A stretch of 64,000 bases of DNA from Candidatus Bathyarchaeota archaeon. Its GTDB lineage: Archaea; Thermoproteota; Bathyarchaeia; Bathyarchaeales; Bathycorpusculaceae. Under the pieces are notes generated by a model, which was not told the DNA's origin, did no database searches, and saw nothing but the letters and a program-made list of their open reading frames with translations. Shown here one piece after another: positions 1 through 59,079 of the stretch (position 1 is its first letter; each line of letters starts with the position of its first letter). The stretch is taken from assembly GCA_963768425.1 (NCBI GenBank), contig CAVYHV010000022.1:32001-96000 (forward strand). Reading direction: 5' to 3'. A program made the translations under genes and the position numbers.

Positions 1-1717
1 ATTTAGTGATTTGGGTGTAAAAGATAAGGAAAACTTGCGTAGTTTTCTGAAACAGTCCATTCTCCCGTTGGTCAAAACTAAAGAAGGTTTTGATAGTGCA
101 GCGATCGAGAATCTTCACATAACTTTTTACGTAACGGGTTTTGCCGAACAAGATACCTATTTCTTAGTTGATGTCCCGACTGAAGAGTTCGGAAGGCTGA
201 TAAGAATTCCGAAAAGCGTTTACAGTCAAGAAATAGAGTATAATTATGTCTTTGTTGAAGACTTGATTGCAAGTAACTTGGATCTATTCTTCCCAAACGA
301 AAAAGACCTTACAGCGTACCAGTTTAGACTAACAAGGAATGGGGAAATAGCCATCATTATGAATGAATCAGCGGACTTCCTCTATTCCGTGAAGAAGAGC
401 TTGACAACTAGAAAAGTCGGTTTCCCAAGCAGGTTAGAATTTGAAATGACAGTGCCTGCTGACATTAAAGATAAAATAGCTGAAGCGCTAGGCTTAGCTG
501 ACAATCTAACGTATGAATTTGATGGGCCACTTGGACTTGTGGATCTTTGGCAAATGCTGAAAATAAATCGCCCCGACCTTAAAGATAAAACATATATTCC
601 AAGCATCTCGCCCCTTTTGAGCGCCGGACAGGATATTTTTGCTAGCCTGGACAAACAAGACTTCGTTTTATATCACCCATATGACAGCTTTGACGTAATT
701 ATTAATCTTCTAAAAGAAGCAGCTCAAGACAGTGGCGTTTTGGAAATATGCATGACAATGTACAGGATGGATCATAATTCGCCGGTTGTTGACGCTTTGA
801 TAGAGGCAGCTGAAAAAGGCAAAAAAGTAACGGCGATAATTGAACTTAAAGCCAAATTTGACGAAGAAAACAATATTCTCCTTGTTTCTAAACTCAGGCA
901 AGGTGGAATAAACACAGTCTACAATTTCCCCAACTTTAAAGTTCACGCAAAACTATGCCTAATTGTTAAAAAAGAAAAAGACAAAATTGTAAGGTACTCT
1001 CACATCGGGTCAGGAAACTACAACTCCGTGACAGCAAGAATCTACGCGGACATCGGTTACTTGACGTCGAATCCTGACGTAGGAAATGAACTTAACGACC
1101 TCTTTAACATCATCGTAAACGGTCTACAAGAAGAAGAATTCCAACACCTGCTTGTAGCACCAAAAACGCTAAAGAAAGAAATTCTAAAGCGAATAGAAAA
1201 AGAAATAAGTTTTCACCAAAAAACCGGGAAGGGATACCTGGCTTTTAAACTGAATAATCTTGAGGAGACAGAAATCATTCAGGCCTTGTTCAGGGCTTCA
1301 ATGGCCGGAATCAAAGTCGACCTAAACGTCAGAGGCCTTTGCTGCTTAAGACCAGGAATACAGGGAGTAAGCGACAACATTTCAGTGATATCCATCGTGG
1401 GACGCTTTCTTGAACACGCACGGATCTATTACTTCCCAGGCGACCCAGAAGATGACGTCTTAATCGGCAGTTCCGACATGATGTTTAGAAACCTCAACGA
1501 AAGAATCGAAGTCCTCTTACCAGTGCCTGACCCATATATCCGCCGCGCACTCCTTGAAATCATGCTCAAAATTGCTCTGCGCGACAACGTTAAAGCAAGA
1601 AGATTGCTGACAGATGGAACATACGAAAGAGTAAAACCTGTCAGGGGAGAGGAAATCATCGATTCTCAAGCTTGGCTGATTAAGAACAGGGGCATCTGGA
1701 ATGAAAGGCCCAGTTAA
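1..1717 (+). CDS. ppk1: Polyphosphate kinase 1 (5' end lies outside the window)
   Basis: PPK1 motifs LYHPYDSF, ELKAKFDEENNI, KVHAKL, HIGSGNYN, IVGRFLEH, SSDMMFRNLNERIE; the frame is open to the left edge. Confidence 0.95.
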   Translation, partial: FSDLGVKDKENLRSFLKQSILPLVKTKEGFDSAAIENLHITFYVTGFAEQDTYFLVDVPTEEFGRLIRIPKSVYSQEIEYNYVFVEDLIASNLDLFFPNEKDLTAYQFRLTRNGEIAIIMNESADFLYSVKKSLTTRKVGFPSRLEFEMTVPADIKDKIAEALGLADNLTYEFDGPLGLVDLWQMLKINRPDLKDKTYIPSISPLLSAGQDIFASLDKQDFVLYHPYDSFDVIINLLKEAAQDSGVLEICMTMYRMDHNSPVVDALIEAAEKGKKVTAIIELKAKFDEENNILLVSKLRQGGINTVYNFPNFKVHAKLCLIVKKEKDKIVRYSHIGSGNYNSVTARIYADIGYLTSNPDVGNELNDLFNIIVNGLQEEEFQHLLVAPKTLKKEILKRIEKEISFHQKTGKGYLAFKLNNLEETEIIQALFRASMAGIKVDLNVRGLCCLRPGIQGVSDNISVISIVGRFLEHARIYYFPGDPEDDVLIGSSDMMFRNLNERIEVLLPVPDPYIRRALLEIMLKIALRDNVKARRLLTDGTYERVKPVRGEEIIDSQAWLIKNRGIWNERPS

Positions 1718-4058
1718 GACGAAACCATGCGAAACTGACCTAAGCTACTGTAGATTCGGTTGCGAAACAATGCTAACGCAACTTGATGCTTTTGAGCAAC
1801 TAATTGATGGAGTGCTAAAAAGCAGCGACATCGAATACGTACATAGAATGCGGGTTGGTTCCCGCAGAATCAGAGCAGTGCTGCCTATTTTCAGGGTCTG
1901 CTTTCCCAAAAAAGACTATAAAAAATGGCGGCGAGAAATAAAAGAAGTGACTCGTCTTCTTTCTAACGCCAGAGACCTAGATGTTCAAATAGCTTTTATA
2001 GAGCAATACAAAGAAAACCTAAAGCCAACGGCAGGAAAAACAGGCCTTGATTTACTTCTCAGACAACATAAAGAACAAAGAAAAAGAATTCAATCGTCCG
2101 TAGTTAATGGTTTAGAAAAGCTGATTGCAAGCTGCATTTTGAAAGATATGCGAAGTTTTTGCTTACAAACCGTAAAAGAGCAAGCAAACTCAACTTTTAA
2201 CCGCGAAATTGTGCTGGAGAAAGCGCATTGGCACATATCCACCAGATTAGACGATTTCTTGGGGATGGAAGAATATGTTTACATTGAAAACGAGACTCTA
2301 AAGCACCATCAGATGAGGATATGCGCTAAAAAACTTCGTTACACACTGGAACATTTTGCGTCGCTCTACCCAAACAAGCTCGCTGGAGAAATAGAAAGAA
2401 TAAAAGCGTTTCAAGATGTACTCGGCGAAATGCATGAGTGTGACATTTGGATAGATTATATCCCAAAATTCATAACGGAAACAAAAAACAAAATACGATC
2501 GGAGAAAAACAAGAAAACAGCCCCTGCAAAAGTTGAGCTTGAACTTTCGAACTTCTTGACATTTATAAGACAAAAAAGAAAAGAGCATTATAGCCAATTT
2601 GTCCAACTTTGGAATAAAACCAAAAAAGAAGCGTTTTTTACTCAACTTAAAAAGACAACTGGCGTTGGATTAGAAATTGGAGAACAAAAAATTAGGCAGG
2701 CCCTCATGAACCCAGATATTAAAATTGCTGCCATATCCGATGTTCACGCAAACCTGCAAGCTTTAGAAAGAGTAATTCAGGATGCTGAAGAGAGGGGCGT
2801 AGATGTTTTTCTGAATGCTGGTGACTCAGTAGGGTTTGGACCTTTCCCAAACGAAGTAATTGAACTTCTTTGCGAAAAAAACGTTTTAAGCGTTGTTGGG
2901 AACTATGACCTTGAAGTTATTGAGGGCAAGACTAAAGAGAAAAACGAAAAAAACCTCGCTTTAAGATTTGCGAGAAAAGAGTTGTCAAACGCTTGTGTAG
3001 AATATCTTCATTCGCTGCCTCGCGAACTCACGTTTGAAGTCGCAGGCAAAAAACTGCTGGTGACTCATGGAAGCCCCGAGTCAATTGATGAACACATTTA
3101 CCCTGACATGCCGGTTGAGCGTTTAGAAACGCTTTCCAACACCGCCAAAGCTGAAGTAATAGTCATAGGTCACTCTCATCAACAACTAATGCGACAGGTA
3201 AATGGAACCTCATTCGTTAACCCTGGAAGCGTTGGAAGACCTGGCGACGGAAACCCGCAGGCAGCTTACGCAATATTGGAGTTTAACCCGTTCAAAGTTG
3301 AGATGATTCGGCTCGATTATGACATTTCAGCAGCCGCAGACGCTCTTCGGAAAAAATCGTTACCTGAAAGTTTCTCCCAGATGCTTCTCCAAGGCGTATC
3401 TCTTGGAACAATAATCGAAGAAGATACCACAAGAGAAAACGATGCAACCAAAAACCGCAAATATATAATCCAAGCCTGCAAAGAATTTGCGGGTGGACAT
3501 TGGGATGATTCGGAACATTATTCCCAAGTTACTAAACTTGCTTTAAAGTTCTTTGACGCTCTAACCGATGTCCATAAGTTGGGTGAGCAGGAAAGATGCT
3601 GGCTCGAATATGCTGCAATTCTGCACGATGTTGGATTATCGAAAAGTATGGGTGGTCACCATAAAGAATCAGCTAAACTCATCCTCAACGCTACCCAATT
3701 GCCCTTCTCATCCAAAGAAAGACGTATAGTAGCAAGCACCGCCCGCTATCACAGAAAAGGATTGCCCAAACAAAAACACTATAACCTCAGATCGCTAGAC
3801 CGGCACACGGTAAATACAATAAATATTTTAGCTGGTCTGCTGCGGGTTGCCGACAGCTTAGATTATGCACACCAATCAAATGTGAAAGCTTTGAATTTCA
3901 AGGTGGGTGCCAAAAAGATAATTGCCGAATGCTTATGCGAAGGGCAATCAATCTTGGAGCAGCAGGCTTTTAATAAGAAGAAAGATTTGTTTGAAAGGGT
4001 CATGGCAAAGAAATTGGTGCTATCATGCAAGACACAGCAAAAAACGCTGAACACGTAG
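1701..4058 (+). CDS. CHAD + calcineurin-like metallophosphoesterase + Ppx-type HD domain fusion (copy 1)
   Basis: CHAD (HRMRVGSRRIRA, RDLDV, HQMRICAKKLRY, QDVLGEMHE); MPP (SDVHAN, GDSVG, GNYD, HGS, GHSH, NPGSVG); HD (AILHDVG, ARYHRK, LRVADSLD); overlaps ppk1 and ppx. Confidence 0.9.
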   Translation: MKGPVKTKPCETDLSYCRFGCETMLTQLDAFEQLIDGVLKSSDIEYVHRMRVGSRRIRAVLPIFRVCFPKKDYKKWRREIKEVTRLLSNARDLDVQIAFIEQYKENLKPTAGKTGLDLLLRQHKEQRKRIQSSVVNGLEKLIASCILKDMRSFCLQTVKEQANSTFNREIVLEKAHWHISTRLDDFLGMEEYVYIENETLKHHQMRICAKKLRYTLEHFASLYPNKLAGEIERIKAFQDVLGEMHECDIWIDYIPKFITETKNKIRSEKNKKTAPAKVELELSNFLTFIRQKRKEHYSQFVQLWNKTKKEAFFTQLKKTTGVGLEIGEQKIRQALMNPDIKIAAISDVHANLQALERVIQDAEERGVDVFLNAGDSVGFGPFPNEVIELLCEKNVLSVVGNYDLEVIEGKTKEKNEKNLALRFARKELSNACVEYLHSLPRELTFEVAGKKLLVTHGSPESIDEHIYPDMPVERLETLSNTAKAEVIVIGHSHQQLMRQVNGTSFVNPGSVGRPGDGNPQAAYAILEFNPFKVEMIRLDYDISAAADALRKKSLPESFSQMLLQGVSLGTIIEEDTTRENDATKNRKYIIQACKEFAGGHWDDSEHYSQVTKLALKFFDALTDVHKLGEQERCWLEYAAILHDVGLSKSMGGHHKESAKLILNATQLPFSSKERRIVASTARYHRKGLPKQKHYNLRSLDRHTVNTINILAGLLRVADSLDYAHQSNVKALNFKVGAKKIIAECLCEGQSILEQQAFNKKKDLFERVMAKKLVLSCKTQQKTLNT

Positions 4059-5605
4059 TTGGCTTCGTGGATATCGGAACAAACGCGGTACGTCTTTTAG
4101 TGGTTAGAATAAACCCCAATTTCTCTTATACGATTATCAGCCAGGAAAAAGAAGTTATTCGACTAGGCGAGCAAGAATTCAAGGATAATATTCTTAGACC
4201 AGAAGCTATGGAGCGAGCAATCTTTGTCTGCGGAAAGTTTGTTGATCTCGCCAAGACCTACGGCGCCACCGAAATAATAGCGGTCGGGACCTCGGCTATT
4301 CGAGAAGCCGAAAACAAACTTGATTTCCTCAAAAAACTGCGAGATGCTACAGGGCTTAAGGTAAAAGTGATTTCGGGTGAAGAAGAAGCCCGCTTGATTT
4401 GTATCGGAGTGTCAAGTGGGGTAAACATCGGTGAGGAAAAAGCTATTTTCATAGATTTAGGCGGTGGAAGCACTGAAATTTGCATCGGAGACCAATTTCA
4501 ATGCTTTTACGCGAACAGTTTAAAGTTAGGGGCAATTAGGCTGACTACACAGTTTGTGGGTGAAGGATGGACAGGCCCAATCGCTGCCAGCACTTACAAG
4601 GCAATGAAACAGTATGCTTCCAGCAAAGTTCGAGTAGCAAAAGGGAAAGTGCAAGAATACGGAGTGAGGCTCGCATGGGGATCATCAGGCACAGTGATAA
4701 ACTTGGCAGAAGTAGCAAACAAATTATTCAAGAAGAACGGCAATGGAGAGGGCTTAACACTGTCAAGGAAGAACCTGAAAAAAATGGCGCCTATTCTGTG
4801 CTCTCTATCGCTTGAAGAAAGAAAAAACCTTCCCGCTATCAATCCGGATCGAGCCGACATCATAATTGCAGGGGCAGCCATAATGGAGGCGATAATGGAA
4901 GAGCTGGGCTTGGAAGAAATAAACATTAGTCGCCGGGAACTGCGGGATGGACTTCTCTTTGATTACTTATCGCATTTTGAAGGTTTCCGAGAACTCCAAA
5001 AGTCGCCTATGCGAAATCGGAGTGTCTTGCATTTGGGAAGATCTTGCAATTTTGACGAGAAACATTCCGATGCGGTGGCTTCTTTAGCGCTTCAGCTTTT
5101 CGACAGCGCAAAACAAATTGGACTGCATAACTTGGGGGAAGCGGAAAAAGAACTCTTGAAGTACGCGGCTATTCTGCATGATGTCGGAGACTTTCTATCA
5201 TTTAACGATCATCAGTTTCATTCTCAATATATTATTTGTAATGCTGAACTGCTTGGTTTTGACCGTAAAGAAATCCAAATAATGGGCAGTATCGCACGTT
5301 TTCACAGAAAAAAGTTACCTTCTAAAAAGGCGCTAAAGGCTTCAGGCTTAGACGAAAAAACCAAAGATTGCATCGCCATTCTTTCAACGTTTCTGAGGTT
5401 TGCTGAAAAACTGGACCGAAGCCATAGCGCGCTAGTGAAGAAGGCTGAATTTATTAAAGAAAATAAAGATCAAGTTTTGCTGGAGTTTTACTCAGACTCA
5501 GACTGCAGTTTTGAAGAATGGAGCATCATCCAAAATAGGCAAGCCTTCTACGAAGCCTTCGGAAAACAACTTGATGTCCATTGCCTAGTTACCCCCAGCA
5601 CCTGA
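4025..5605 (+). CDS. ppx: Exopolyphosphatase Ppx/GppA with C-terminal HD domain
   Basis: DIGTNAVRL, GTSAIREA, ISGEEEARL, DLGGGSTE, ELRDG, AILHDVG. Confidence 0.95.
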   Translation: MQDTAKNAEHVVGFVDIGTNAVRLLVVRINPNFSYTIISQEKEVIRLGEQEFKDNILRPEAMERAIFVCGKFVDLAKTYGATEIIAVGTSAIREAENKLDFLKKLRDATGLKVKVISGEEEARLICIGVSSGVNIGEEKAIFIDLGGGSTEICIGDQFQCFYANSLKLGAIRLTTQFVGEGWTGPIAASTYKAMKQYASSKVRVAKGKVQEYGVRLAWGSSGTVINLAEVANKLFKKNGNGEGLTLSRKNLKKMAPILCSLSLEERKNLPAINPDRADIIIAGAAIMEAIMEELGLEEINISRRELRDGLLFDYLSHFEGFRELQKSPMRNRSVLHLGRSCNFDEKHSDAVASLALQLFDSAKQIGLHNLGEAEKELLKYAAILHDVGDFLSFNDHQFHSQYIICNAELLGFDRKEIQIMGSIARFHRKKLPSKKALKASGLDEKTKDCIAILSTFLRFAEKLDRSHSALVKKAEFIKENKDQVLLEFYSDSDCSFEEWSIIQNRQAFYEAFGKQLDVHCLVTPST

Positions 5606-5620
5606 TGCGTGGGAAGCTGT

Positions 5621-6524
5621 TTATTCTTTTTCAAGCTCAGCTTTTGCCGTTTCCAAAGCTTCTTTTTGCTCTTTGCTCAAGGTTGGGTATTTTAAGTTCA
5701 GTTTCTTGATCTGAGACACTAGTAATTTCAGAAATCAAGGCGTGGGTAACCCATTTTTTGTCTGAAGGGATAATATACCATGGTGCCCATTCAGTGCTTG
5801 TTTCATTAACCATTTCTTCGTATGCATCCTGGTAATCGGCCCATTTTGATCGTTCTGAAAGATCAGTGGCTGAGAATTTCCAATTTTTCGTTGGGTCTTC
5901 AAGTCGCTTGAGAAAACGCTGTTTCTGCTCCTCCTTCGAGACATGTAGGAAGAATTTCAACACGACTGTGCCGTTCCGAACTAGGTGTCGCTCGAACATG
6001 GTTATGTCTTGATACCTTTGATTCCAGAATTGTTTTCCTTCCACCTCCGAAGGCAACTTTTCTCTTTCCAAAACCTCTGGGCGAACCTTAACAATCAACA
6101 CATCTTCGTAGTATGAACGGTTGAAAATTCCAATGCTTCCTTTTTCTGGGAGGGCTTTCACGTTGCGCCATAGAAAATCATGGTTCAGTTCCTCTTCAGA
6201 CGGCGTTTTGAAAGCTGTAACTTGGCATCCTTGAGGGTTTACTCCCGACAATACATGGCTGATTACGCTGTCTTTTCCTGCTGCATCCATCCCCTGAAGA
6301 ATAATCAGGAGGGAATAAATGTGACTCGCCCAAAATAACTCCTGCAACTCGATCAGTTTCTGGGTGTTTGCCTCAATGATACCTAACCCTTCTTCTTTTG
6401 CTTCCTTTTTGCCCTCTTCATCTTCCTTTTTCTTAGCCCAATCCGGAACCCAACCGGGATCAAAATCCTTAAGACTAATCTTCTTGCCAGACGGCACCTT
6501 GAAATCTTCCGAATCCATTGACAT
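5621..6524 (-). CDS. ppk2: Polyphosphate kinase 2 family (class III-like); +1 frameshift near 5723
   Basis: QGMDAAGKD, FNRSYYEDV, KFFLHVSKEEQ, WKFS, APWYIIP; the shifted frame restores a typical C-terminus LVSQIKKLNLKYPTLSKEQKEALETAKAELEKE ending at 5621. Confidence 0.92.
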
Positions 6525-6751
6525 CTAAAACAGCCCCATTGAGAATAGGTTACAGTGCCTAATAATGGCTACTCTACAGATCAGACAGCCATATCATTGG
6601 GAGCTAACCCAAAAACATGCCAAGAAAATAGTGCGTAATTGCTAAACAGCAACAAAACAAAGCAAATGTTACTTGTAAAAAGCCTATAAGAAAAAAAGAG
6701 TCTCAATAACCAAGAGAAAAAAGGAGAGAAGTAAGCTATCGGTATTTTTTG

Positions 6752-7369
6752 CTAAGTTGTCATTCCGCTGTCCGAGACATTTGCCTTTTCCGGCGTTTCT
6801 GCGGCAGTTTCCTCTTTTTTCGGCATCTCAGCTTCGGCTGAAGTTTCCAAGTTTGCCGCAGGCTTCCTTGTTGAAACGGTTTTTGGCTTTGGCTTGGGCT
6901 TTGGTCCTTTTTTGGCTTTCGGAGGAATCTTGGCTTTTAGAGCTGGAACTTCTTTGCGCCTTAAAGGAGCTTCTTTTGGTTTAACATCGAGTTTCTTTTT
7001 TGTGTTCCAGTTTGGAAGTTCGCCATGTTCAACTTTATACTTTGCAAGCAAATCCTCTTGCATAATTCTTGGTTTGTCTGTTAGAATCCAGCTTATGGTA
7101 GCTTTTTCTATGTAGCCTTGGTTGAAAAGCAGTTCATTGATCTTCTTTGTATTTTTTCCTCCGTATCCGCCCAAATATCCACCTAGTATTCTTTTGCTGG
7201 GTTTTTTTGTCCGTCCAATATACAGAATGTCAGATCCTTCTTTTCCAGAGTGTTCTTTGTCAACTATTACGATGACAGCAGCTTTGTCCGATGGCAAATT
7301 TGAAAGCGCCAATGTTTTCAGCGGCAACCATTCGGAGAATCCAGTTTCCATTAAAGTTTTAGAATTCAT
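6752..7369 (-). CDS. GIY-YIG-like domain protein with Lys/Pro/Ala-rich C-terminal tail
   Basis: ILYIGRT...R, QEDLL...ELPNWN pattern; the first GIY motif is degenerate; low-complexity basic tail (KAKKGPKPKPKPK). Confidence 0.55.
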   Translation of the reverse strand: MNSKTLMETGFSEWLPLKTLALSNLPSDKAAVIVIVDKEHSGKEGSDILYIGRTKKPSKRILGGYLGGYGGKNTKKINELLFNQGYIEKATISWILTDKPRIMQEDLLAKYKVEHGELPNWNTKKKLDVKPKEAPLRRKEVPALKAKIPPKAKKGPKPKPKPKTVSTRKPAANLETSAEAEMPKKEETAAETPEKANVSDSGMTT

Positions 7370-7523
7370 ATTTCACTAAGAACTGCTAGAAGGATTTAAC
7401 TATTTCTAAGCCTTAAAACTAGCAATTTACGCGTCGGCGATCTTGGAGTTGTTTATATCTTGATTTTGTTTTCATCGCAAAGCAACACTTTTTTGGAAAC
7501 AATAAAAAATAAACCGCTGAAGT

Positions 7524-9996
7524 TTGCCATCAACCCTCGAGGCGTTTGAGATGAACGCTTGCTTTGACCCTAACTGCGCTAGGATAGATTCAAGTTATTG
7601 CCTTTTCGGGGCTGAAGCGCTCAAGAAGCTTCTTTCAACTATTGAAGCACAAATAGGCGGAGTCGAAAAAAACGAAGACATCGAATACCTTCACAGAATG
7701 CGTGTAACTTCACGTAGAATAAGAGCAGCCATGCCGCTTTTCAAAGAATGTTTCCCAAAAAAACGCTACAAAAAATGGATAAACGAAATCAAGAATGTAA
7801 CTCAGTTCCTAGGCACCGCCAGAGATTTGGATGTCCAGATCTTGTTCATAAAAGACTACATTCAACAACTTCAAGAAACGGATCCTAAAAAGGGAATCGA
7901 GGCTTTGCTTGAAGCGCACGTTAATCAAAGAGCAGGTCTACAATCCAGCATAACTAATGGACTTGAAGAGCTTAAAAAGTCAAGAGTCCTACAGCAAACG
8001 GCAAGTTACTGCGAACAAATCGTAAAAGAATCAACCTGCACACCCTTCAATTTGTTCTCGGTTCGCGAAAAAGCCTTCTGGCAAATATCATCCAAACTAG
8101 ACGCTTTTTTAGCCATGGAGGAGTGGATCCATAAGGAAAACGAAATCCTCAAACACCATGAAATGCGGATCCGAGCTAAATGGCTCAGATATACCTTGGA
8201 AGCGTTTGCACCGCTGTATGAGCAAGAACTTTCTGAAGAAACAAAAATGATGAAGAATTTTCAAGACATTCTTGGCGAAATGCATGATTGCGACGTATGG
8301 ATTGATGGTATTCCAAAATTCATTGAGGAAACACGAAGGAAAACGGCAATAATCCCAGAAAACGAGCAAGCAGCTGCTGATCACAACCAAGATCTTTTAA
8401 GCTTCCTCGATTTTATTAAAGAAAAAAGAAAAAGTCGTTATCAAAAATTCGTCAGTTTCTGGGACGAAAACAAAAGCAAAAACGCCTTAGAGGAATTAAG
8501 GAAAAACGCGAGCGCCGGCTTTACAGCAGCGGAACATAGAACTAAAGAAGAACTGACAAATCCATACGTCAAAATTGGTGTAATTGCGGACATTCATGCA
8601 AACCTAAATGCTCTTGAAGCTGTTTTTGAAGATGCCAAACGTCGAGGAATAACCGTTTTCTTAAATGCGGGTGATTTAATAGGGTTCGGGGCTTTTCCTA
8701 ACGAAGTAGTTGAAGCCCTATACTCGAAGAATGCTTTGAGCGTGATAGGAAATCTGGATCTTGAAATTTTGGACAAGAACAAGAAGGGCAAAGGTATCCA
8801 AAAATTCTCTATAGAATTCGCCAGAAAAGAGTTGAAAAAATCTTACGAGACTTATCTTCGCGCCTTGCCTTTCAAACTCGAGCTTGAAGTCGCTCATAAG
8901 AAACTTCTTATGATTCATGGACCTCCCAACGCGGTTGACGAACATTTGTTCGATGATACGCCAATCGAAAGATTTCAGGAAATAGCAAAAACCGCGAACG
9001 CGGACATATTTATCTTTGGGCATTCGCATGATCAGTTCACAAAAGAAGTTGACGGAGTCTTGTTCATCAACCCGGGCAGCGTGGGAAGACCTGGGGATGG
9101 AAACCCTCAAGCCGCCTACGCGGAGATTACAACTAACCCCTTTTCTGTTGAGTTAATTAGAGTTAATTACGATGTGGAGGCAGCGGCTGATGGTTTGAGA
9201 AGAAGGGGCGCTTCTGAAAGTTATGCCCAAATGCTGCTCCGGGGGTTATCATTAGATAACATAATCGCGGAAGACAAAACCAAAGAACACGATATGGAAG
9301 AAAAGTGCGTTGAGATAACCAGAAGTTGCCAAACTATTTCGCAAATCTATTGGCCAGGATTTTAAGCATGCAGAGCAAGTAAGAAAGTTATCCATGGAAC
9401 TCTTTGACTCCCTGCAAGATCTGCATAAACTCGACAGGAGGGAACGGTGCTGGCTAGAATGCGCTTCAATTCTTCACGACATCGGCCTGGCACGGGGACC
9501 AAAGGCACACCAAAAGAATACACTAAAACTTATTCTAAACGAGACAAAGCTGCCTTTTACCTCAGGAGAGAGACAGGCCATAGCGAACGTAGCGCGATAT
9601 CATCGCAAGAGTTGCCCAAAAAATAAAGACTATGACTTCAAGTCGCTTAGCACTGAATTGAAACGGAAAGTCAAGATTTTAGCGGGCATTTTGCGTTTGG
9701 CTGACGGTTTAGACTTCTCTCATCAGTCAATAGTTCAAAGAGTAGAAGCCCACTTGGCTTTCGAGTACGTAACTATTGAAGCGATTGCGCTTTTAAGCCC
9801 TGTTGCAGAAGAGTTAGCTGTAAACAAGAAAAAAGAAATGTTTGAACAGTTCTTCAGAAAGAAAATTTTGCTTGCGTGGAAGCAGGCCAAACCCCTTCAA
9901 CAACAAACAAGCGAGCAAGCAGGAACGATATCACAAGAGCCAATCCCTTCAACCGATGGAAACTTGATTACACAAACCGACGGCAAAATCGATTGA
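7524..9996 (+). CDS. CHAD + metallophosphoesterase + HD fusion (copy 2); one extra G at about 9357 splits it into 7524-9365 and 9394-9996
   Basis: Collinear paralogue of 1701-4058 (HRMRVTSRRIRA, ADIHAN, GNLD, GHSH, NPGSVGRPGDGNPQAAYA, SILHDIG); removing one G gives WPDFKHAEQVRKLSMELFD. Confidence 0.88.
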
Positions 9997-10876: not shown

Positions 10877-10982
10877 TGGTGCGGTCACCGGGATTTGAAC
10901 CCGGGTTGTCAGGTTGGGAACCTTCCACAGCACGTCAGTAAGGCAATGCTTTGATGTCCTAACCAAGCTAGACTACGACCGC
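10877..10982 (-). tRNA. tRNA-Gly(CCC) with 29-nt intron (10923-10951) at non-canonical position 29/30; CCA encoded
   Basis: Acceptor GCGGTCG/TGACCGC-A-CCA; D-arm GTCT/GGAC; anticodon stem TCA^GG/CCTGA with loop TT-CCC-AA; T-arm CCGGG-TTCAAAT-CCCGG. Confidence 0.93.
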
Positions 10983-27194: not shown

Positions 27195-29544
27195 TCACTC
27201 CTTCATTTTCCTGATCATTCTTGGAAGCAATGTTGGGTCCGGTATTACTGTTTCTTTCCAGTCGTGTGCTTCCAGTATCTTGGTGAATTCGTCTTTCATG
27301 GTCATTGGGATATCAGCCATTGTTCTCACGAATAAGTGTAAGTCGTTTGGCATAACTCCCATGTAGCGTTTGCTTAAGTCAACGTAGTGGCTTAGTTTTA
27401 TGCTGCGTCCTTTCCATGTGTCGTTTGGTCTGATGCAAAGCTTTGCGATTGCAACCATGCATTCCTCTTTGGTTTCTACTGTGTTGAAGAGGTGTTCTGG
27501 TGCGGGTCCGACTCTAACTTTGTCGCCTGTACGTGCATCGTAGACTTCGAAGTCTTCGGGGTGGTCTTCTCTGCCAAGGAGCATTCGACGGTACTTAACA
27601 CCATGCGGTCCGACGAGAACGGGTATGCCTAAGCGCCAGAATCCAGCGCCTATAGCTGCAGCTTTCTGTGAGTATGCACCCCACGCTAGACCAACAGCAC
27701 CTAAGCGGTTGTGGATGTAATCTGCGATTTCTTCGTAATTGCCGCGAAGTGGGCGTTTTGCGAATATGTTTGCTACTTTGATTGCAGCGCCTGCGATGTG
27801 GCTGTTTGCGACGCATGAGCCAACGTTAAGTACTCCTCCCGCTTCAAATCCGCCTGGAAATTCTTCGTATAGTGTTTGTCCGTCGCTGTTGCGGTAACTG
27901 CCTGCGGACATTGCTGAGCATCCTGACAGTACTACGATGTATCGTCTTAGAGCAAATTCTCGACAAATGTCGTAGACGTCTTTGCCTCCTTTTGGATAGT
28001 TGCTGCATCCTACTACTGCAACGATACCTGGGATTTCTCCGAGCACTATTGGGCTACCGACATTGCGGATTTCAACGTCTGAGACTGCGCCTCTGCCAAC
28101 GCGGCACAGGTTATCTTCAGCGAGCATTGCCTTTTCGCCTGATTTGATGATTAGACTATGAATCATGATTTTTTGCGGGCAAGCTTCTTCGCATCTTCCG
28201 CATCCAATGCAGGTCTCATAAAGATCTTCTAGTAAGGATAGGTCACCTTTTGCTGCTGCTTTGATGGCTGCTGGAATCGCGTAGTCTTGTGGGCAGTTCC
28301 GTTGGCAACTCTTGCATTGAGTGCAGGTCTTAGCGATCTGTGTAATTTCCTCTATGGTTGGAAGACTGGTCTTTCGTTTGCGTATAGGAGCAACTTTTTG
28401 GGCGACACGTACTGCGACTTCGCCGACTTTTTCTGGATCAAGAATTAGCACGCCTTTGACTTTGCCGCTAACGAGGTCAGCAACGATTTCGTCTGCTGGA
28501 TCGTTTGTACGGTTCTTGAAGCCCATGCAGTTCTTTTCGGATGCTGCAATTACTGGAGCGTTGACTTTACCGGCTTCGTCATAGACGTCTGTTCGGATAC
28601 ATTGTTCGTCAAGTACAACTACATCGGCTAAGCCTGCACGTATGAATCTTAGCTCCCAACTGATAGGTCCAACAACTCTTGCACGATTATAGTATCTTGT
28701 CATGTCGTGTGCCGTGCAACATAAGCCCGACAACTTCGATTTTCTCGTCAACTTTGTTTTCTTTTGCGTAGTCAATTATTCCGATTGATGGAACAACGTT
28801 GTGGCCAATGCACATGATGACTGGTTTTGTTCGATCAACGCTTCCGATTCCGAGTTTTACAAGAGGTGCTTCTGCGTCCGCTTTTGGATAGCCTAATGTA
28901 GAAATTTGTGCGATATCTCCGACTTCCATTCCGACATGGTCAATCATACCGACGTGAAAAGCTTTAGATTCAAAGTCTAAATTGTTGCCTTCTTGACCTG
29001 TATGTCCTACCGCGAGAATTTGGGTGATTTGCTCTTCTGTGTAAGTTAAAATATCCTCCAAGTCGCCAAGTGTTTCAGGCTTTATACCAGTAACAAGGCG
29101 GCTAACGGGCGCTTCAACTTTTATGTTCAGACCTCCAACGTCTAACGGAGTTCTGCGTCCATATTTTTCAATTAAATGGTGAAGAAGATGGCGTGAGTGG
29201 GCTGTATGGCAAGCGGCTCCAATTGCGCAAGCTAACATCACGATGCGAGATGATTGAGTCGCGATGTCTATTCCGCATGCGCCTCGTTTCCCTGCTGTCA
29301 AATCGCATTTTCCAAAAGTACATAGACAGCAAAGGTCACAGTCGGGCATGTAGAAGGGCTTGTACTTGTTTAGGAGTTTCATGTCCCAGTCTCGTAGGGT
29401 GGTCATGGAGGGCATTGGAGTTGGTCCCATGGGTTCAGTGTAGTTGTCGTTGACAACTTTGCCAATGGAGACTTCGAGGTTTTTAATAAGACCTGAGTTG
29501 GTCTTCATTTCGCCTATTTTTACGTTAACGTTTTTAGCAGTCAA
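27195..29544 (-). CDS. cdhA: CO dehydrogenase alpha subunit; frameshift near 28725
   Basis: CDLCCLCTFGKCDL, GAACHTAH, CIGHN, GLCCTAHD, DEQC, two 4Fe-4S motifs, GCSNYP, GSCVANSH, GAYSQKA. Confidence 0.95.
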
Positions 29545-29700
29545 ATTAATGACTCCTCTGTAAAGGTTTAGGTATAAGACTGCCATGATTTGTTTTTAAA
29601 CCTTTCCAGAAATCGAGGCAAAAGTCATGATCCAATTACAGAAATGTTAAGGTTCTGAGAAATTGTGTAAAGAAAGAGCCAGAGAATATATACACGCTGA

Positions 29701-51385: not shown

Positions 51386-52087
51386 ATGACCGTGTTGGTC
51401 GTCTCAAACATCGACCTAACCACTAAACTTCAAGTAGTGAAGCCCACAACGTTTTTAGACTCCACAATCAAAGAGCCCACACTTAACATTAACAACGAGT
51501 ACCGTTACCTCAAAACAGGCTACTACGTTTCTATGCACGCTGAAATCTTGGGCAACCGCGTGATTCCATCATGCGAAAATATCATTGACTCAAGCAGAAC
51601 CCCAGTTTTTCTTCTCAGAGCAGCCAAAGCAGGAGTGCTAACTTTACCCGTCCTCGTCACCGACTCAGTTAAAAAAATAACCAATGAACTCGGCTTCCCA
51701 GTGCTGATTTTCGCAGTTAACCCATTCATTTACGACGGCTACAAAATAGCCGGCAACAAAAGCGCCCTTTACCGCGCCATGAAAAGCTTAGGCATGAACT
51801 ACAAATTCGCGGTATGCGCGCAACCTCTAAGGGGAGAGCTTTCCGCAGTCAAAACATACTTCGGAAAAACCGTTAACCAAGACATTGACATCCAAAAAAT
51901 CGCTGAAAAAGTATACAGAATTTTCGGAATTCCAATTTGCAAATTGTACATACAAAAAACTGTTGACAAAGCTTATCTCTGTGGACTACAACCCGTAGAT
52001 AAAGAGGAGCTTTCCGAACAGGACTTGAAAATAATATCCAAAGAGGTCTCGCTCATTTCTGAGCAGGGTGAACCCTTCGGTGTCTAA
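51386..52087 (+). CDS. RLAN (RimK-like ATP-grasp N-terminal) domain protein
   Basis: LNINNEYRYLKTGYYVSMHAE..G.RVIPS signature. Confidence 0.8.
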   Translation: MTVLVVSNIDLTTKLQVVKPTTFLDSTIKEPTLNINNEYRYLKTGYYVSMHAEILGNRVIPSCENIIDSSRTPVFLLRAAKAGVLTLPVLVTDSVKKITNELGFPVLIFAVNPFIYDGYKIAGNKSALYRAMKSLGMNYKFAVCAQPLRGELSAVKTYFGKTVNQDIDIQKIAEKVYRIFGIPICKLYIQKTVDKAYLCGLQPVDKEELSEQDLKIISKEVSLISEQGEPFGV

Positions 52088-52958
52088 GATCGCGTGCTTT
52101 GTTGAGAAATATAATTTTACTGATCCCCGGGAGGAAGGCGCTCTTCAAAACTTCAAAGCAGCCGCTGAAAAACAGGGAAGCGAATTTCATTTCCTCTTCC
52201 GAGAAGACATATCCGAAGTCCCAAAATACGACGCGGTCTTCATCAGAGCAACAACCGACCCGTTGAACACGGCTTATGTGGTTTCTAAAACCGCTTGGGA
52301 ACTGGGTTTGAAAGTCATTGACGACCCAGAATCCATCACTATATGCGGAAATAAAATCCATCAGTACGCGCTGTTTGAAAAGTACAATGTTCCACGAATA
52401 CCGACAATGTTTCTTAACAAGGATGAGTTGCACCACAAAAAAATCAGCGAAATATTTGATGCACTGGGAAAACCCGTTGTCATAAAGGCGCCTTACACAA
52501 GTTTCTCACGTTACGTTGAGAAAGCCGCCTGCGAAACAAGTTTCCGAGATGTTGCTAAACGCTTCTTCCGAAAATCCGATGTTTTAGCCATTCAAAAGTT
52601 TACGCCAACAGCTTTCGATTGGAGAGTTGGCGTTCTAAACAATGATGTACTTTATGTTTGCAAATATATGATTCCCAAAGGCAAATGGAAACACGGCGCG
52701 AAACTCCGAGGCAAACCCACAGTCATTTGGGGAAGAACGGTCAGCCTCAGAAAACGAGAGATGCCATCAAGGCTCAGGGAAGTTGCTTTGAAAGCCTGCA
52801 GCGTTGTTGGGAAAGGGCTCTACGGCGTGGACATCAAAGAAGTCGACGGCGACTACGTTGTGGTCGAAGTAAACGACAACCCAAGTATCTACGCTGGCTA
52901 TGAAGACTCATCTGACCGCGATATTTACCGAAGAATCATAAACTACCTATCAGAATAG
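52068..52958 (+). CDS. RimK-family ATP-grasp ligase (probable GTG start 52080)
   Basis: YDAVFIRATT, VIDDPESI..C.NK, KAPYTSFS, FDWRVGVL, GLYGVDIK, VEVNDNPSI. Confidence 0.9.
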   Translation: MNPSVSKIACFVEKYNFTDPREEGALQNFKAAAEKQGSEFHFLFREDISEVPKYDAVFIRATTDPLNTAYVVSKTAWELGLKVIDDPESITICGNKIHQYALFEKYNVPRIPTMFLNKDELHHKKISEIFDALGKPVVIKAPYTSFSRYVEKAACETSFRDVAKRFFRKSDVLAIQKFTPTAFDWRVGVLNNDVLYVCKYMIPKGKWKHGAKLRGKPTVIWGRTVSLRKREMPSRLREVALKACSVVGKGLYGVDIKEVDGDYVVVEVNDNPSIYAGYEDSSDRDIYRRIINYLSE

Positions 52959-53020
52959 CCCCAGTCGCTAGGCACGTATTTATTTTAATGCTTGTTAATC
53001 CAGTGCAAGGAGATCGGGTA

Positions 53021-54001
53021 ATGCCCAAAAAAGAACATAACGCGCATAAAGAAGCAGTAAAAGACTACGAGCTAACCCAAGAAATGTCTGTGGATGAGCT
53101 TGTTCGCCAAATGGATAAGGCATGGGGTTTTACTGCTGGGAAACTTGCATCTGGCGTTAGCATCATGGAATCCATGATTAACACAAAGGGCTGCGTCAAA
53201 TTTCTCTCGTTCCCCGCCGACATAGTAGCCACAGGCACCCGAGGCGTGATCAAAGAATTGGTGAAACGAAAACTCGTTGACGTCCTCATAACAACCTGCG
53301 GCACATTGGATCATGATGTCGCGCGATGCTGGAAAGACTACTACAAGGGTAGCTTCATAATGAACGATTCAAGGCTTCATCGGGAAGGCTTAAACCGCCT
53401 AGGAAATGTGATCGTGCCCAATGATAGCTACGGAATAATCATCGAACAGAAAATCCAAGGGCTCCTCCAGGAACTCTATAAGGAAGGCAAACGAGAGCTT
53501 TCAACCAGCGAACTCTCTCGGGAAATCGGGTTACGCTGCTGCAACGAGAACTCGATTCTTTACTGGGCAGCCAAAAACAATATCCCAGTCTACGTTCCAG
53601 GCATAACCGATGGTGCAGTAGGCTACCAGCTATGGTTCTTCAGCCAAGACCACCATGACTTTAGAATTAACCTGCTTAAAGATGAAGGAGACCTCAACAA
53701 CATCATTTTCGACGCTAAAAAAAGCGGCGCATTAATCGTTGGCGGCGGCATCTCCAAACATCACACGATATGGTGGAACCAATTCAAAGACGGCTTAGAC
53801 TACGTAGTCTACATTAGCACCGCAGACGAATGGGACGGCAGTCTAAGCGGTGCAAGACCACGTGAAGCAGTTTCATGGGGAAAAATCAGCGAAAAAGCAA
53901 GGCGCATAATGATTGAGGGCGACGCCACAGTAATCTTGCCAATAATGACATGCTCCCTTCTAGAAAGGCTAAGCCAAAATAAAAAGGACAAAAAAGAATA
54001 G
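53021..54001 (+). CDS. dys: Deoxyhypusine synthase (canonical-type)
   Basis: TTCG.LDHD, NRLGN, PGITDG, GGGISKHH, DGSLSGA...EAVSWGK. Confidence 0.92.
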   Translation: MPKKEHNAHKEAVKDYELTQEMSVDELVRQMDKAWGFTAGKLASGVSIMESMINTKGCVKFLSFPADIVATGTRGVIKELVKRKLVDVLITTCGTLDHDVARCWKDYYKGSFIMNDSRLHREGLNRLGNVIVPNDSYGIIIEQKIQGLLQELYKEGKRELSTSELSREIGLRCCNENSILYWAAKNNIPVYVPGITDGAVGYQLWFFSQDHHDFRINLLKDEGDLNNIIFDAKKSGALIVGGGISKHHTIWWNQFKDGLDYVVYISTADEWDGSLSGARPREAVSWGKISEKARRIMIEGDATVILPIMTCSLLERLSQNKKDKKE

Positions 54002-56199: not shown

Positions 56200-57264
56200 T
56201 TATGTTACGCCTTTGAATAGCCAGTTCATATCTGGCCCTTTCCGCTTTTCAGGCATTCTCTCGCAAAGTGCATGTGCTATCAACGGCAGCGCAATAGTGG
56301 CGTCGCAGTAGCATACTGCTCGTGTTCCTTCTTGGCTGTTGATTTTGCCCCAACTGATGGCTTCTTCTAGTGTGCAGCCACTTAAGCCGCCCCACTGCTG
56401 TGAGTCTGTTGTGATTTGTATGGCATATTTGTGCGGGTAGTAGTATTCTTGTAGGCCTTTGCGTAAGCCGCCTTTTCTTCCTTTTACTCCTTGATCCTCA
56501 GTAAGCGGTGAAACGGAGATGGCGATAAGCTGAGTAAGGTCTTTTGGTACACCACCGCCGATGTAGACGACACCTACGTCTTTAGTTTTTGTACCTATGC
56601 TGATGAACTCATCGAATTCCCTAACAGAGTCAATGTGCACGCTGTGCCCTTGGTTTTTGGCCATTAGGAATGTTTCGCCATAAGCGCTGTCAACCATAGC
56701 TGGACTGAAAATTGGAACGCCGTTGGCTGCGGCAACGGTGGAGATAGCCGGAATCTTTTTCTTGCCAAGGTACTTGCCGAGCAAATACAGAAATTCGGCT
56801 GAGGTGTAGTAGTAGTCGGTTTTAAGGGTCATAACGAAGTCTGTCACTAATTCTTCCATTTTGCGGTAATCCGTCTCTTTCCCAAAAACATCATAGTACC
56901 TGTTTACGTCGGCCTTAAGCAACGCTGAATCGTCAACCATGTGGCTTCCCTGCCAGTAACCCAAGCCCATTGCGTCAACTATGTCTTCTGAAACGTTGGC
57001 GCCGGTGGAAACCAACACGTCAATGAAGCGGTTTTCCATAAGCCAATTGATAATTGTCCATTGCCCAGCCGTGCTCATTGAGCCAGCGAAACCCATAGCG
57101 ATAGTAAGTTCTTTTTCTTTAAGCATGTTTTCCCAGACATCTACTGCTTCGCCAAGTTTGCGTCCCTGGTAAGCGGTTCTGCTCATTTCTGAAAGAAGCT
57201 GAGAAATACTTTTTTGTTTGACTTTTATTGGTTCAAGTTTCTTTTTAAAGTATGATTCGCTCAT
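56200..57264 (-). CDS. Deoxyhypusine synthase-like paralogue (homospermidine-synthase-like)
   Basis: AGSMSTAG, STGAN..ED, PAMVDS, GGGVPKD, WGGLSG.TLEEAISWGK. Confidence 0.88.
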   Translation of the reverse strand: MSESYFKKKLEPIKVKQKSISQLLSEMSRTAYQGRKLGEAVDVWENMLKEKELTIAMGFAGSMSTAGQWTIINWLMENRFIDVLVSTGANVSEDIVDAMGLGYWQGSHMVDDSALLKADVNRYYDVFGKETDYRKMEELVTDFVMTLKTDYYYTSAEFLYLLGKYLGKKKIPAISTVAAANGVPIFSPAMVDSAYGETFLMAKNQGHSVHIDSVREFDEFISIGTKTKDVGVVYIGGGVPKDLTQLIAISVSPLTEDQGVKGRKGGLRKGLQEYYYPHKYAIQITTDSQQWGGLSGCTLEEAISWGKINSQEGTRAVCYCDATIALPLIAHALCERMPEKRKGPDMNWLFKGVT

Positions 57265-58215: not shown

Positions 58216-59079
58216 CTATTCTTTTCCTTTTACTCTGTTTTCTTCATAACCCCTTAGGAAACTATCAATATCTAAACCGACCTTTTCGCACGCATATCCG
58301 CCCTCCAAGACAAAAAAAGCTGGTTTTTTCATGTTCGCAACTCTTTTGCCGATCTCCCAGTAATCGTGCTCTATCAGCCCTAAAGTCGCCAGATCACCAA
58401 CATGAGTGTCAAAGCCGCAGGAAACCGCGACGACCTCGACTTTATCGAAATTAACCAGGCACAGGGCTTTATCAAGCGTCTTTAAGTAAAGTTCTCCTCC
58501 TGCTTGAGGAGGCAAAACATAGTTGATGCAGTTTCCCTCGGTGAAGTCGCCTGTTCCCGGGTAATTCGGTGACTGATGCAGCGAAACGTATGTTACTTTT
58601 TTGTTGTCTTGAAATATCTCTTGGGTTCCGTTTCCATGGTGCCCATCTATATCCAAAATGAGTGTTTTTTTGCATAGTTTTTCGACAGCGATTGCGATGT
58701 TGTTGAGGTAGCAGAATCCACGTGTATGGACGCCTAATGCGGCGCCGCTTCTGCCAACGTGGTGTCCCGGTGGTCGCATGAGTGAGAAACCATTAGTTTC
58801 ACTTGCTAGAACTGCTCCGCCGGCAGAAAGCCTCGCGTACTCGTAGATGTCGGCGTATGCTGGCGTATCGGCGTCTTCAACTAAACCTTTTTTTAATTTC
58901 CAGAGGTAATCGGCATCGTGAACAGCAAGTAGATCATCTTCACAGGCTGGCTTGGGCTCCAAAAAACCGTATCCTTTCTCTTTGAGGATTTCAGATGCAA
59001 CCTTGACTCTTTGCGGTCCCTCGACATGCCAGGCTCCATAGCCTAAACACTTTTCAGAATAAACTATCGTGGTTTCCAT
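58216..59079 (-). CDS. Histone deacetylase/acetylpolyamine amidohydrolase family protein
   Basis: RPPGHH, GFCYLNN, DIDGHHGNGTQ, SLH, GFD, LEGGY. Confidence 0.93.
   Translation of the reverse strand: METTIVYSEKCLGYGAWHVEGPQRVKVASEILKEKGYGFLEPKPACEDDLLAVHDADYLWKLKKGLVEDADTPAYADIYEYARLSAGGAVLASETNGFSLMRPPGHHVGRSGAALGVHTRGFCYLNNIAIAVEKLCKKTLILDIDGHHGNGTQEIFQDNKKVTYVSLHQSPNYPGTGDFTEGNCINYVLPPQAGGELYLKTLDKALCLVNFDKVEVVAVSCGFDTHVGDLATLGLIEHDYWEIGKRVANMKKPAFFVLEGGYACEKVGLDIDSFLRGYEENRVKGKE

Follow-up and report, generated by a model that had tools for sequence, protein, structure and literature searches.

The CHAD domain is an established polyphosphate (polyP)-binding module that, when fused to the polyphosphatase YgiF, boosts the activity of its partner (PMC6537752); CHAD proteins are described as granule-associated and as having no enzymatic activity themselves (PMC6537752; PMC10892726). 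The subject of the present study is a gene in which CHAD is joined to two further domains. It lies at 1701..4058 on the + strand of a 64,000-nucleotide (nt) stretch of Candidatus Bathyarchaeota DNA (contig CAVYHV010000022.1, positions 32,001 to 96,000), which we call the window and whose own coordinates are used throughout. From its ATG start the gene encodes a protein of 785 residues, P0001, composed of CHAD, a calcineurin-like metallophosphoesterase (MPP) domain of the YfcE/SapH type, and a Ppx/GppA domain III with an HD-type motif. The gene is translationally coupled to those for polyphosphate kinase 1 (ppk1) and Ppx (ppx) across several archaeal orders. We favor the reading, at slightly better than even confidence, that P0001 is a polyP-docked, binuclear-metal phosphoanhydride hydrolase that acts on polyP.

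Several groups of described proteins resemble P0001 in part. In the YgiF type of CYTH(TTM)-CHAD short-chain polyphosphatase, CHAD is fused to a metal-dependent phosphoanhydride hydrolase, an activity that P0001 may share by analogy. YgiF-type enzymes use a triphosphate-tunnel catalytic domain and carry CHAD at the C terminus, whereas P0001 has an MPP catalytic module, an N-terminal CHAD, and added Ppx domains III-IV, and is encoded within ppk1-ppx. The family could therefore be pictured, again by analogy, as YgiF-type CHAD-assisted polyphosphatase logic with a YfcE/SapH-type MPP engine and a Ppx C-terminal module. SapH (Spr1479) of Streptococcus pneumoniae (PDB 3qfm/3qfn) and the uncharacterized 3rqz, 1nnw, and 2gju have the MPP ligand set in common with P0001, but they are stand-alone proteins of ~250 residues without CHAD or a Ppx module, and we know of no polyP gene context for any of them. 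Ppx/GppA proteins (Escherichia coli 1u6z/2flo, Deinococcus radiodurans 8jgo, Yersinia pestis 3rf0) share domain III(-IV) and the operon with P0001, and in both, domains III-IV come after a catalytic module; in P0001, however, the MPP domain takes the place of the ASKHA-fold domains I-II, and domains III-IV are more basic than those of the neighboring Ppx.

The yeast enzymes Ppn1 and Ppn2 are eukaryotic vacuolar proteins without CHAD or Ppx modules. Ppn1 is an MPP-superfamily enzyme, and the initial annotation of the window had said so of both. For Ppn2 this statement found documentary support, because PPN2 is tabulated as "Metallophosphatase, Zn2+" and as an endopolyphosphatase, which places it in the same broad superfamily, with the same proposed chemistry, as P0001 (PMC11352482). 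Neither Ppn1 nor Ppn2 was among the PDB sequence matches of P0001, a search that involved no direct comparison with the Ppn1/Ppn2 sequences. In the excerpts consulted, PPN1 is given as "not found in bacteria" (PMC11352482), and endopolyphosphatases are assigned to microbial eukaryotes (PMC13318637). The latter paper, of 2026, calls archaeal polyP metabolism little known and reports for Haloferax volcanii, which has no ppx, a Mn2+/Co2+-dependent polyP-degrading activity whose gene is unidentified (PMC13318637).

The claim that no protein of this architecture had been characterized stood within our literature search and the database names. The search returned no characterized CHAD-MPP-HD protein, an early mention in Iyer and Aravind 2002 or Tumlirsch and Jendrossek 2017 being possible. 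Papers on the CHAD domain and polyP, judged by titles and abstract openings, contained nothing on a CHAD-MPP enzyme; of the papers that combine CHAD with metallophosphoesterases a single one bears on this family, and those that combine CHAD with polyP, archaea, and phosphoesterases do not treat this protein; a search pairing endopolyphosphatase with metallophosphoesterase gave nothing; and both "CHAD" and "phosphoesterase" are absent from the text of a paper on archaeal polyP genes (PMC6864096). The names attached to family members in the source databases were all generic: "YfcE family phosphodiesterase", "putative phosphoesterase", "CHAD domain-containing protein", "metallophosphoesterase family protein", and "phosphodiesterase".

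The domain composition of P0001 was determined with Pfam and NCBIfam. CHAD (PF05235) matched residues 26–252 (1776..2456; E 2.6e-43, 149 bits against a cut-off of 25.6), and the helical region continued to about residue 320. Metallophos_2 (PF12850) matched residues 341–528 (2721..3284; E 5.9e-28, 98.3 bits against 27); this middle domain was also recognized by PF00149 (58.5 bits against 21.5) and by TIGR00040, "YfcE family phosphodiesterase" (68.6 bits against 56.25). Ppx-GppA_III (PF21447) matched residues 603–739 (3507..3917; E 3.3e-18, 66.6 bits against 27.3), and this match was overlapped by one to HD (PF01966) at residues 605–722 (E 2.4e-08, 34.7 bits against 22). These scores are far beyond chance. 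Structure prediction, which had been suggested as a check, was performed with AlphaFold2 on 27 relatives and the model was compared with the PDB by Foldseek; mean pLDDT was 80 and pTM 0.55, and CHAD, MPP, and the C terminus each matched their own PDB fold group.

Both flanking genes in the window overlap this gene. Upstream, ppk1 (2..1717, +; Pfam PP_kinase, PP_kinase_C_1, and PP_kinase_C; TIGR03705, 574.9 bits), whose 5′ end is cut by the left edge of the window, overlaps it by 17 nt (1701..1717). Downstream, ppx (4025..5605, +; Ppx/GppA catalytic domains plus domain III by Pfam and NCBIfam) overlaps it by 34 nt (4025..4058) if ATG 4025 is taken as the ppx start. The fusion of CHAD, MPP, and a Ppx-type HD domain between ppk1 and ppx, and both overlaps, had been proposed in the initial annotation and were confirmed by the Pfam matches and the open reading frame (ORF) coordinates.

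To place this arrangement in a wider sample, a one-genome-per-species scan was made. It gave 548 confirmed matches, the best 80 of which were taken and yielded 66 loci; neighboring genes were located by tblastn with the proteins of the window itself. Immediately upstream and on the same strand, ppk1 was present in 62 of the 66 loci; of the other four, three are cut at the contig start (L015, L020, and L054) and one (L038) holds only a gene of the second-copy type described below. Immediately downstream, ppx was present in 57 of 66. Among the exceptions, ppx is convergent on the other strand in L043, L058 ends at the contig edge, and L038 is again the second-copy locus; ppx was not found in the 1.3–8 kb downstream in L045, L047, L049, L053, L065, and L066. 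The PPK2-family gene ppk2 was present in 50 of the 66 loci. The titles of the loci are mostly of Bathyarchaeia, with others from Methanomassiliicoccales, Thermoplasmata, Methanolliviera, ANME-1/Methanophagales, and ANME-2; a few loci come from bins labeled as bacterial, with sequences nearly identical to those of archaea. The nearest locus (L001), with 95% protein identity, comes from a Bathyarchaeia metagenome-assembled genome (MAG). The neighborhood survey, also a check suggested beforehand, showed that the polyP context is kept, and the conserved synteny strongly backs the proposed link to polyP metabolism.

In the model, residues 14–335 of P0001 are all helices, which fits the all-helical CHAD fold of two four-helix bundles. 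Foldseek matched this part to 6qva/6qv7 (TMt 0.71–0.72), 3e0s (0.71), and 6qv5 (0.73); 6qva is the polyP complex of the Chlorobium tepidum CHAD protein (CtCHAD). Mutation of CtCHAD H253, R256, R260, R296, or R418/Y419 lowers polyP affinity 6- to 150-fold (PMC6537752). Their counterparts in P0001, by the HMMER alignment (offset 204), are H48, R51, R55, R91, and R213/Y214, and all six of the latter were unchanged in 27 of 27 sequences of A1, the alignment of P0001 relatives. The domain is basic (isoelectric point, pI, 9.5; net charge +16). Retention of the contact residues validated by mutation in CtCHAD agrees with the earlier assignment of this domain as a predicted polyP binder. The same domain has cysteine and histidine positions that are largely kept among the non-gap locus copies: C17 in 64/64, C67 in 63/64, C154 in 56/62, C247 in 59/67, and H245 in 67/68. 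C67, H245, and C247 have no counterpart in the aligned CtCHAD, and C17 precedes the aligned stretch. Judged by this conservation, C17, C67, C154, C247, and H245 (window ~1749–2441) may form a structural-metal or redox site.

The MPP domain of P0001 has the complete binuclear metal ligand set DxH...GD...GN...H...GHxH, formed by D347, H349, D375, N401, H456, H491, and H493. In the 76 gene copies of the 66 loci these ligands were kept in 76 (D347), 75 (H349, D375, and N401), 73 (H456), 70 (H491), and 72 (H493) copies, the shortfall being mostly gaps in frame-broken genes. They were also present in 118–119 of 119 close database matches and in ~108–113 of ~115 MPP-bearing cluster representatives. 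Closest by sequence was the group of 1nnw, 2gju, 3rqz, and SapH (E 2.8e-24 to 1.8e-14), and the same ~250-residue MPPs matched the fold with TMt 0.71–0.81. SapH was the closest characterized relative by both measures (E 6.5e-19, TMt 0.77–0.80). Weak PDB matches included the diadenosine tetraphosphatases 2qjc and 9t9n, and the non-catalytic MPP Vps29 was among the distant fold matches. With a pI of 5.0 and a net charge of −11, the core of this MPP domain is acidic (family median pI 5.7).

One position departs from the classical motif. In MPP chemistry generally, the His of GNH[DE] serves as a general acid, and MPP-superfamily protein phosphatases, as far as is known, keep it. Translation and alignment verified the observation that this His is missing here: residues 398–403 of P0001 read V-V-G-N-Y-D (GNYD at residues 400–403, 2898..2909), with Tyr at the His position, and the paralogue at 7524..9365 reads V-I-G-N-L-D. 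The residue after GN was Y in 49, F in 14, V in 5, I in 4, L in 2, and C in 1 of the 76 locus copies, with 1 gap; Y in 98, F in 20, and C in 1 of the 119 close matches; and Y in 60, F in 27, L in 7, V in 5, I in 3, N in 3, A, R, and D in 2 each, and T, S, W, and C in 1 each of the 115 representatives. His, as in the classical MPPs (PPP, Mre11, ApaH), was found after GN in 0/76, 0/119, and 0/115. In the alignment, YfcE (1su1) has GNCD here and SapH (3qfm) GNWE, in keeping with the statement that YfcE-type enzymes also lack this His; 3rqz and the diadenosine tetraphosphatase 2qjc read GNHD.

The C terminus of P0001 matched the C-terminal domains of Ppx in Foldseek searches, best illustrated by 3rf0, a 199-residue Yersinia fragment (TMt 0.76 over 201 columns), and also by 1u6z and 2flo. 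By these matches, the "HD domain" of P0001 is Ppx domain III followed by a beta-beta-alpha-beta unit (residues 728–778, 3882..4034; delimited by the secondary structure of the model and Foldseek) that corresponds to domain IV. By sequence, domain III of P0001 matched that of D. radiodurans PPX (8jgo) with E 4e-16 and was 37% identical to domain III of the Ppx in the window. PF02541, which covers the ASKHA-fold catalytic domains I-II, had no match in P0001, whereas the product of the adjoining ppx scored 212.5 bits. The pI is 9.3 for domain III and 9.4 for the domain IV-like unit of P0001, compared with 6.8 for domains III-IV of the neighboring Ppx.

The size and modularity of the family were examined by HMMER over 1.84 billion cluster representatives, which gave 28,506 matches at E ≤ 1e-3 and 811 at E ≤ 1e-30; among the weaker matches will be proteins that carry just a single domain of the three. 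The best 150 representatives comprised 35 three-domain proteins, 48 MPP-HD proteins of ~440–530 residues, 26 CHAD-MPP proteins, 28 with CHAD and no aligned MPP or HD ("C--"), 1 CHAD-HD protein (P0145), and 12 partial or fragmentary sequences. The global mode of hmmalign under-calls HD in CHAD-HD proteins and shows them as "C--"; Pfam found domain III/HD in all four "C--" rows scanned (P0155, P0212, P0254, and P0273) and in P0145. The MPP-HD form extends to Bacteria, with an Aminithiophilus ramosus record and MAGs of Anaerolineales, Planctomycetota, and Armatimonadota.

Split and fused forms also occurred within the operon. In the ANME loci, CHAD has a gene of its own, near that for MPP-HD. At L056:7338-11094 (+; Methanophagales/ANME-1) the order is ppk1, a 525-residue protein whose C-terminal half contains CHAD, an ATPase of the ParA/MinD type (AAA_31), MPP-HD, and ppx, and the layouts of L057 and L058 are alike. 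The presence of a partition-type ATPase within the ANME-1 polyP operon suggests granule positioning. At L048:8001-11906 (+), in a Bathyarchaeota MAG, a single ORF of 1301 residues reads CHAD-MPP-HD-Ppx(I-II)-III; it could be a natural fusion, or the result of a lost stop or a frameshift in a long-read assembly.

Two predicted polyP-binding modules flanking an intact binuclear hydrolase, the coupling to ppk1 and ppx, and the split and fused forms within the operon make a polyP hydrolase the most economical reading. In such a mechanism P0001 would be a cytoplasmic hydrolase, co-expressed with PPK1, Ppx, and PPK2, that docks onto polyP. The basic N-terminal CHAD and the basic C-terminal Ppx-type domains III-IV would grip the polyP chain or the granule surface, and in the acidic YfcE/SapH-type MPP domain between these grips a metal-bound hydroxide would attack a phosphoanhydride bond of polyP. 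A general acid would be unneeded, the leaving group itself being phosphate, and this could be why the GNH[DE] His is replaced by Tyr, Phe, or an aliphatic residue throughout the family. We infer that polyP is the substrate; endo-cleavage, processive exo-cleavage, and short-chain cleavage are all compatible with the results, as is hydrolysis of nucleotide polyphosphates. That Ppx is usually encoded next door suggests that the two enzymes complement each other and are not redundant: P0001 might cut long chains internally to create new ends, or remove lengths that Ppx handles poorly.

Several observations weigh against this hydrolase reading. The presence of a canonical Ppx next door in most loci means that a second polyphosphatase is not obviously needed. 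Because pTM was 0.55, the mutual placement of the three domains in the model is unreliable, while the single domains are credible. With its acidic MPP core, the protein would depend on the flanking domains and the metals to guide a polyanion to the active site. The PDB title of SapH, the closest characterized MPP relative, calls it an "asymmetric Ap4A hydrolase and phosphodiesterase", an enzyme acting on nucleotides, and nucleotide substrates are reportedly described in the SapH paper. Finally, the conserved aromatic residue after GN (Tyr/Phe; Trp in SapH) could stack on a base.

The last three of these points favor the main rival, in which P0001 is a granule-tethered, SapH-type nucleotide-polyphosphate hydrolase and CHAD and domains III-IV merely localize it. 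Its substrates would be diadenosine tetraphosphate (Ap4A), adenosine tetra- and pentaphosphate, nucleoside triphosphates, or nucleotide-capped polyP, formed by PPK1 and PPK2 as by-products; nucleoside oligophosphates are among the products of PPK2 enzymes. Since SapH is the closest characterized relative, and is likewise without the His, the nucleotide option raised in the initial annotation stays open; the weak matches to diadenosine tetraphosphatases and the aromatic residue in 87 of the 115 MPP-bearing representatives point the same way. Base stacking cannot be general, however, because V, I, or L follows GN in whole clades and in the paralogue. Two polyP-binding modules also seem excessive for mere localization, and the Ppx-type C-terminal module replaces nothing that is nucleotide-specific. 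We consider a nucleotide-specific enzyme unlikely, although it survives better than the other alternatives.

A second alternative would move catalysis to the C terminus, with the HD-type domain III as a second or the main catalytic center, a metal-dependent phosphohydrolase, the MPP domain catalyzing another step, and P0001 a bifunctional protein. The motif residues H606, H642-D643, H653, H684, D718, D721, and H724 were invariant in A1 and were kept in 72 of the 72 non-gap sequences among the 76 locus copies, in 119 of 119 close matches, and in 89–90 of 90 representatives; the HD score of the domain also exceeded its cut-off, and the CHAD-HD proteins without MPP are what would be expected of a CHAD-targeted HD enzyme. 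Ordinary Ppx domain III has the same motifs, however, and in Ppx catalysis resides in domains I-II. The Ppx of the window carries H..HD..H..H..D in its domain III; in D. radiodurans PPX, HE stands where HD would be, and HHK, YHRK, and ADGLDRAH are present as well, and H. pylori PPX/GppA is without the HD dyad. To our knowledge the Ppx domain III-IV module is not a catalytic HD enzyme, and we know of no hydrolase activity of domain III. In the excerpts consulted, Ppx domain III is said to resemble the SpoT HD domain (PMC12248826), and the Ppx C-terminal domains are assigned an influence on the dimer and on the N-terminal active site rather than a hydrolase function (PMC11234463). The CHAD-HD proteins can be explained equally well as non-enzymatic granule proteins. 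We regard a catalytic domain III as improbable.

Slightly less probable still is a non-catalytic role as a polyP granule protein ("phosin" or scaffold), or a protein phosphatase activity on the phospho-His of PPK1 or on polyphosphorylated proteins: CHAD granule proteins without enzymatic activity are described (PMC6537752; PMC10892726), Vps29 is among the fold matches, and coupling is tighter to ppk1 than to ppx, but the seven metal ligands persist in relatives only 31–33% identical in the best matching segment, which makes a purely structural role unlikely, and the family lacks the GNH[DE] His.

Returning to polyP hydrolysis, a more ambitious version, which we advance tentatively and as a whole consider doubtful, is that the family is the first prokaryotic endopolyphosphatase, with the MPP domain held on the polymer by CHAD and Ppx-type domains and feeding Ppx and PPK2, and that the MPP-HD and CHAD-MPP relatives account for non-Ppx polyP degradation in archaea and bacteria, such as the Haloferax volcanii activity. 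No haloarchaeal member was seen among the family matches. Archaeal polyP turnover outside Ppx is poorly understood, and here is a large, modular, uncharacterized family with a link to polyP. It is abundant, and its tie to ppk1 holds over several archaeal orders; these include Bathyarchaeia and methane-cycling groups that are dominant in peat and sediment. If the family degrades polyP, genome-based inventories of phosphorus cycling in which ppx alone is counted overlook a major enzyme, and the modularity of CHAD, MPP, and domain III would offer a natural system on how polymer-binding modules set endo/exo specificity.

The window contains a second copy of the gene. Its CHAD-MPP part (7524..9365, +; GNLD) showed 51% identity to the first copy across 589 residues, and its domain III/HD part lies in another frame (9319..9996, +), where the ORF as listed, 9394..9996, encodes a protein 45% identical to the first copy. 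A 1-nt frame change occurs near 9352–9360: homology starts upstream of the ATG of the second frame, which there reads ...GQDFKHAEQVRKLSMELFD, matching ...DDSEHYSQVTKLALKFFD of the first copy. The start of the paralogue is likely ATG 7551 rather than TTG 7524, the family N-terminal pattern MN...C..D.SYC beginning at 7551. Eleven related loci carry a second copy; in eight it is an uninterrupted three-domain frame of 811–861 codons, and of the other three, two are broken (L007 and L028) and one is cut by the contig end (L041). Because the second copy is intact in 8 of 11 loci, the split paralogue of the window represents a frameshift or an assembly error and not the norm of the family. In a quick maximum-likelihood tree of the MPP region, the second copies, including that of the window, formed one clade (11 rows, SH-aLRT 100) nested among Bathyarchaeia, and the duplication therefore arose within that lineage.

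Two further genes lie between the copies. One, ppk2 (5637..6524, −; Pfam PPK2, E 1.9e-65; TIGR03709, 350.5 bits against a cut-off of 247.2), is convergent with ppx and belongs to the polyP cluster. The other encodes a small protein (6752..7369, −) with a GIY-YIG-like N-terminal domain and a basic, Lys/Pro-rich tail, and is divergent from the second copy. Homologues were found in 46 loci, in Bathyarchaeia, at 148–214 residues plus one fragment of 32 residues (for example, L001:5035-5541, −, and L039:13035-13649, −), and were always transcribed away from ppk1 or the second CHAD-MPP-HD copy. They share the motif SDILYIGK.KKP.KR..GGYL.GYGGK ... EHG..P.WN, followed by a disordered Lys/Pro/Ala-rich tail. 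Evidence for the fold was weak (Pfam GIY-YIG, E 0.0094; Atlas lead 0.95–0.97; Foldseek UvrC GIY-YIG, E 3e-3, TMt ~0.65). The protein could be a partner that binds polyP or DNA as a polyanion, or it could regulate the cluster. A promoter and terminator scan of 5400..7700, by a method not designed for archaeal promoters, gave counts at the level of shuffled sequence (3 vs. 3.2; 4 vs. 2.7).

Elsewhere in the window are genes for carbon monoxide dehydrogenase/acetyl-CoA synthase (CODH/ACS), formylmethanofuran:tetrahydromethanopterin (H4MPT) formyltransferase, and F420 metabolism. The CODH/ACS alpha subunit (Prismane/CO dehydrogenase family, Fer4) is encoded by two overlapping ORFs at 27195..28775 and 28687..29586 (−; 526 and 299 residues), which may reflect an assembly frameshift or a real split. 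ARAGORN predicted no tRNA in the whole window, and Rfam matched a tRNA over its full model at 10880..10982 (−; 42.9 bits, 103 nt), in all probability an archaeal tRNA with an intron. A pair of deoxyhypusine synthase paralogues is found within a distance of 3.3 kb (52988..54001, +; 56200..57264, −), with RimK-like ATP-grasp genes upstream (51386..52958) and a gene of the histone-deacetylase family downstream (58216..59079).

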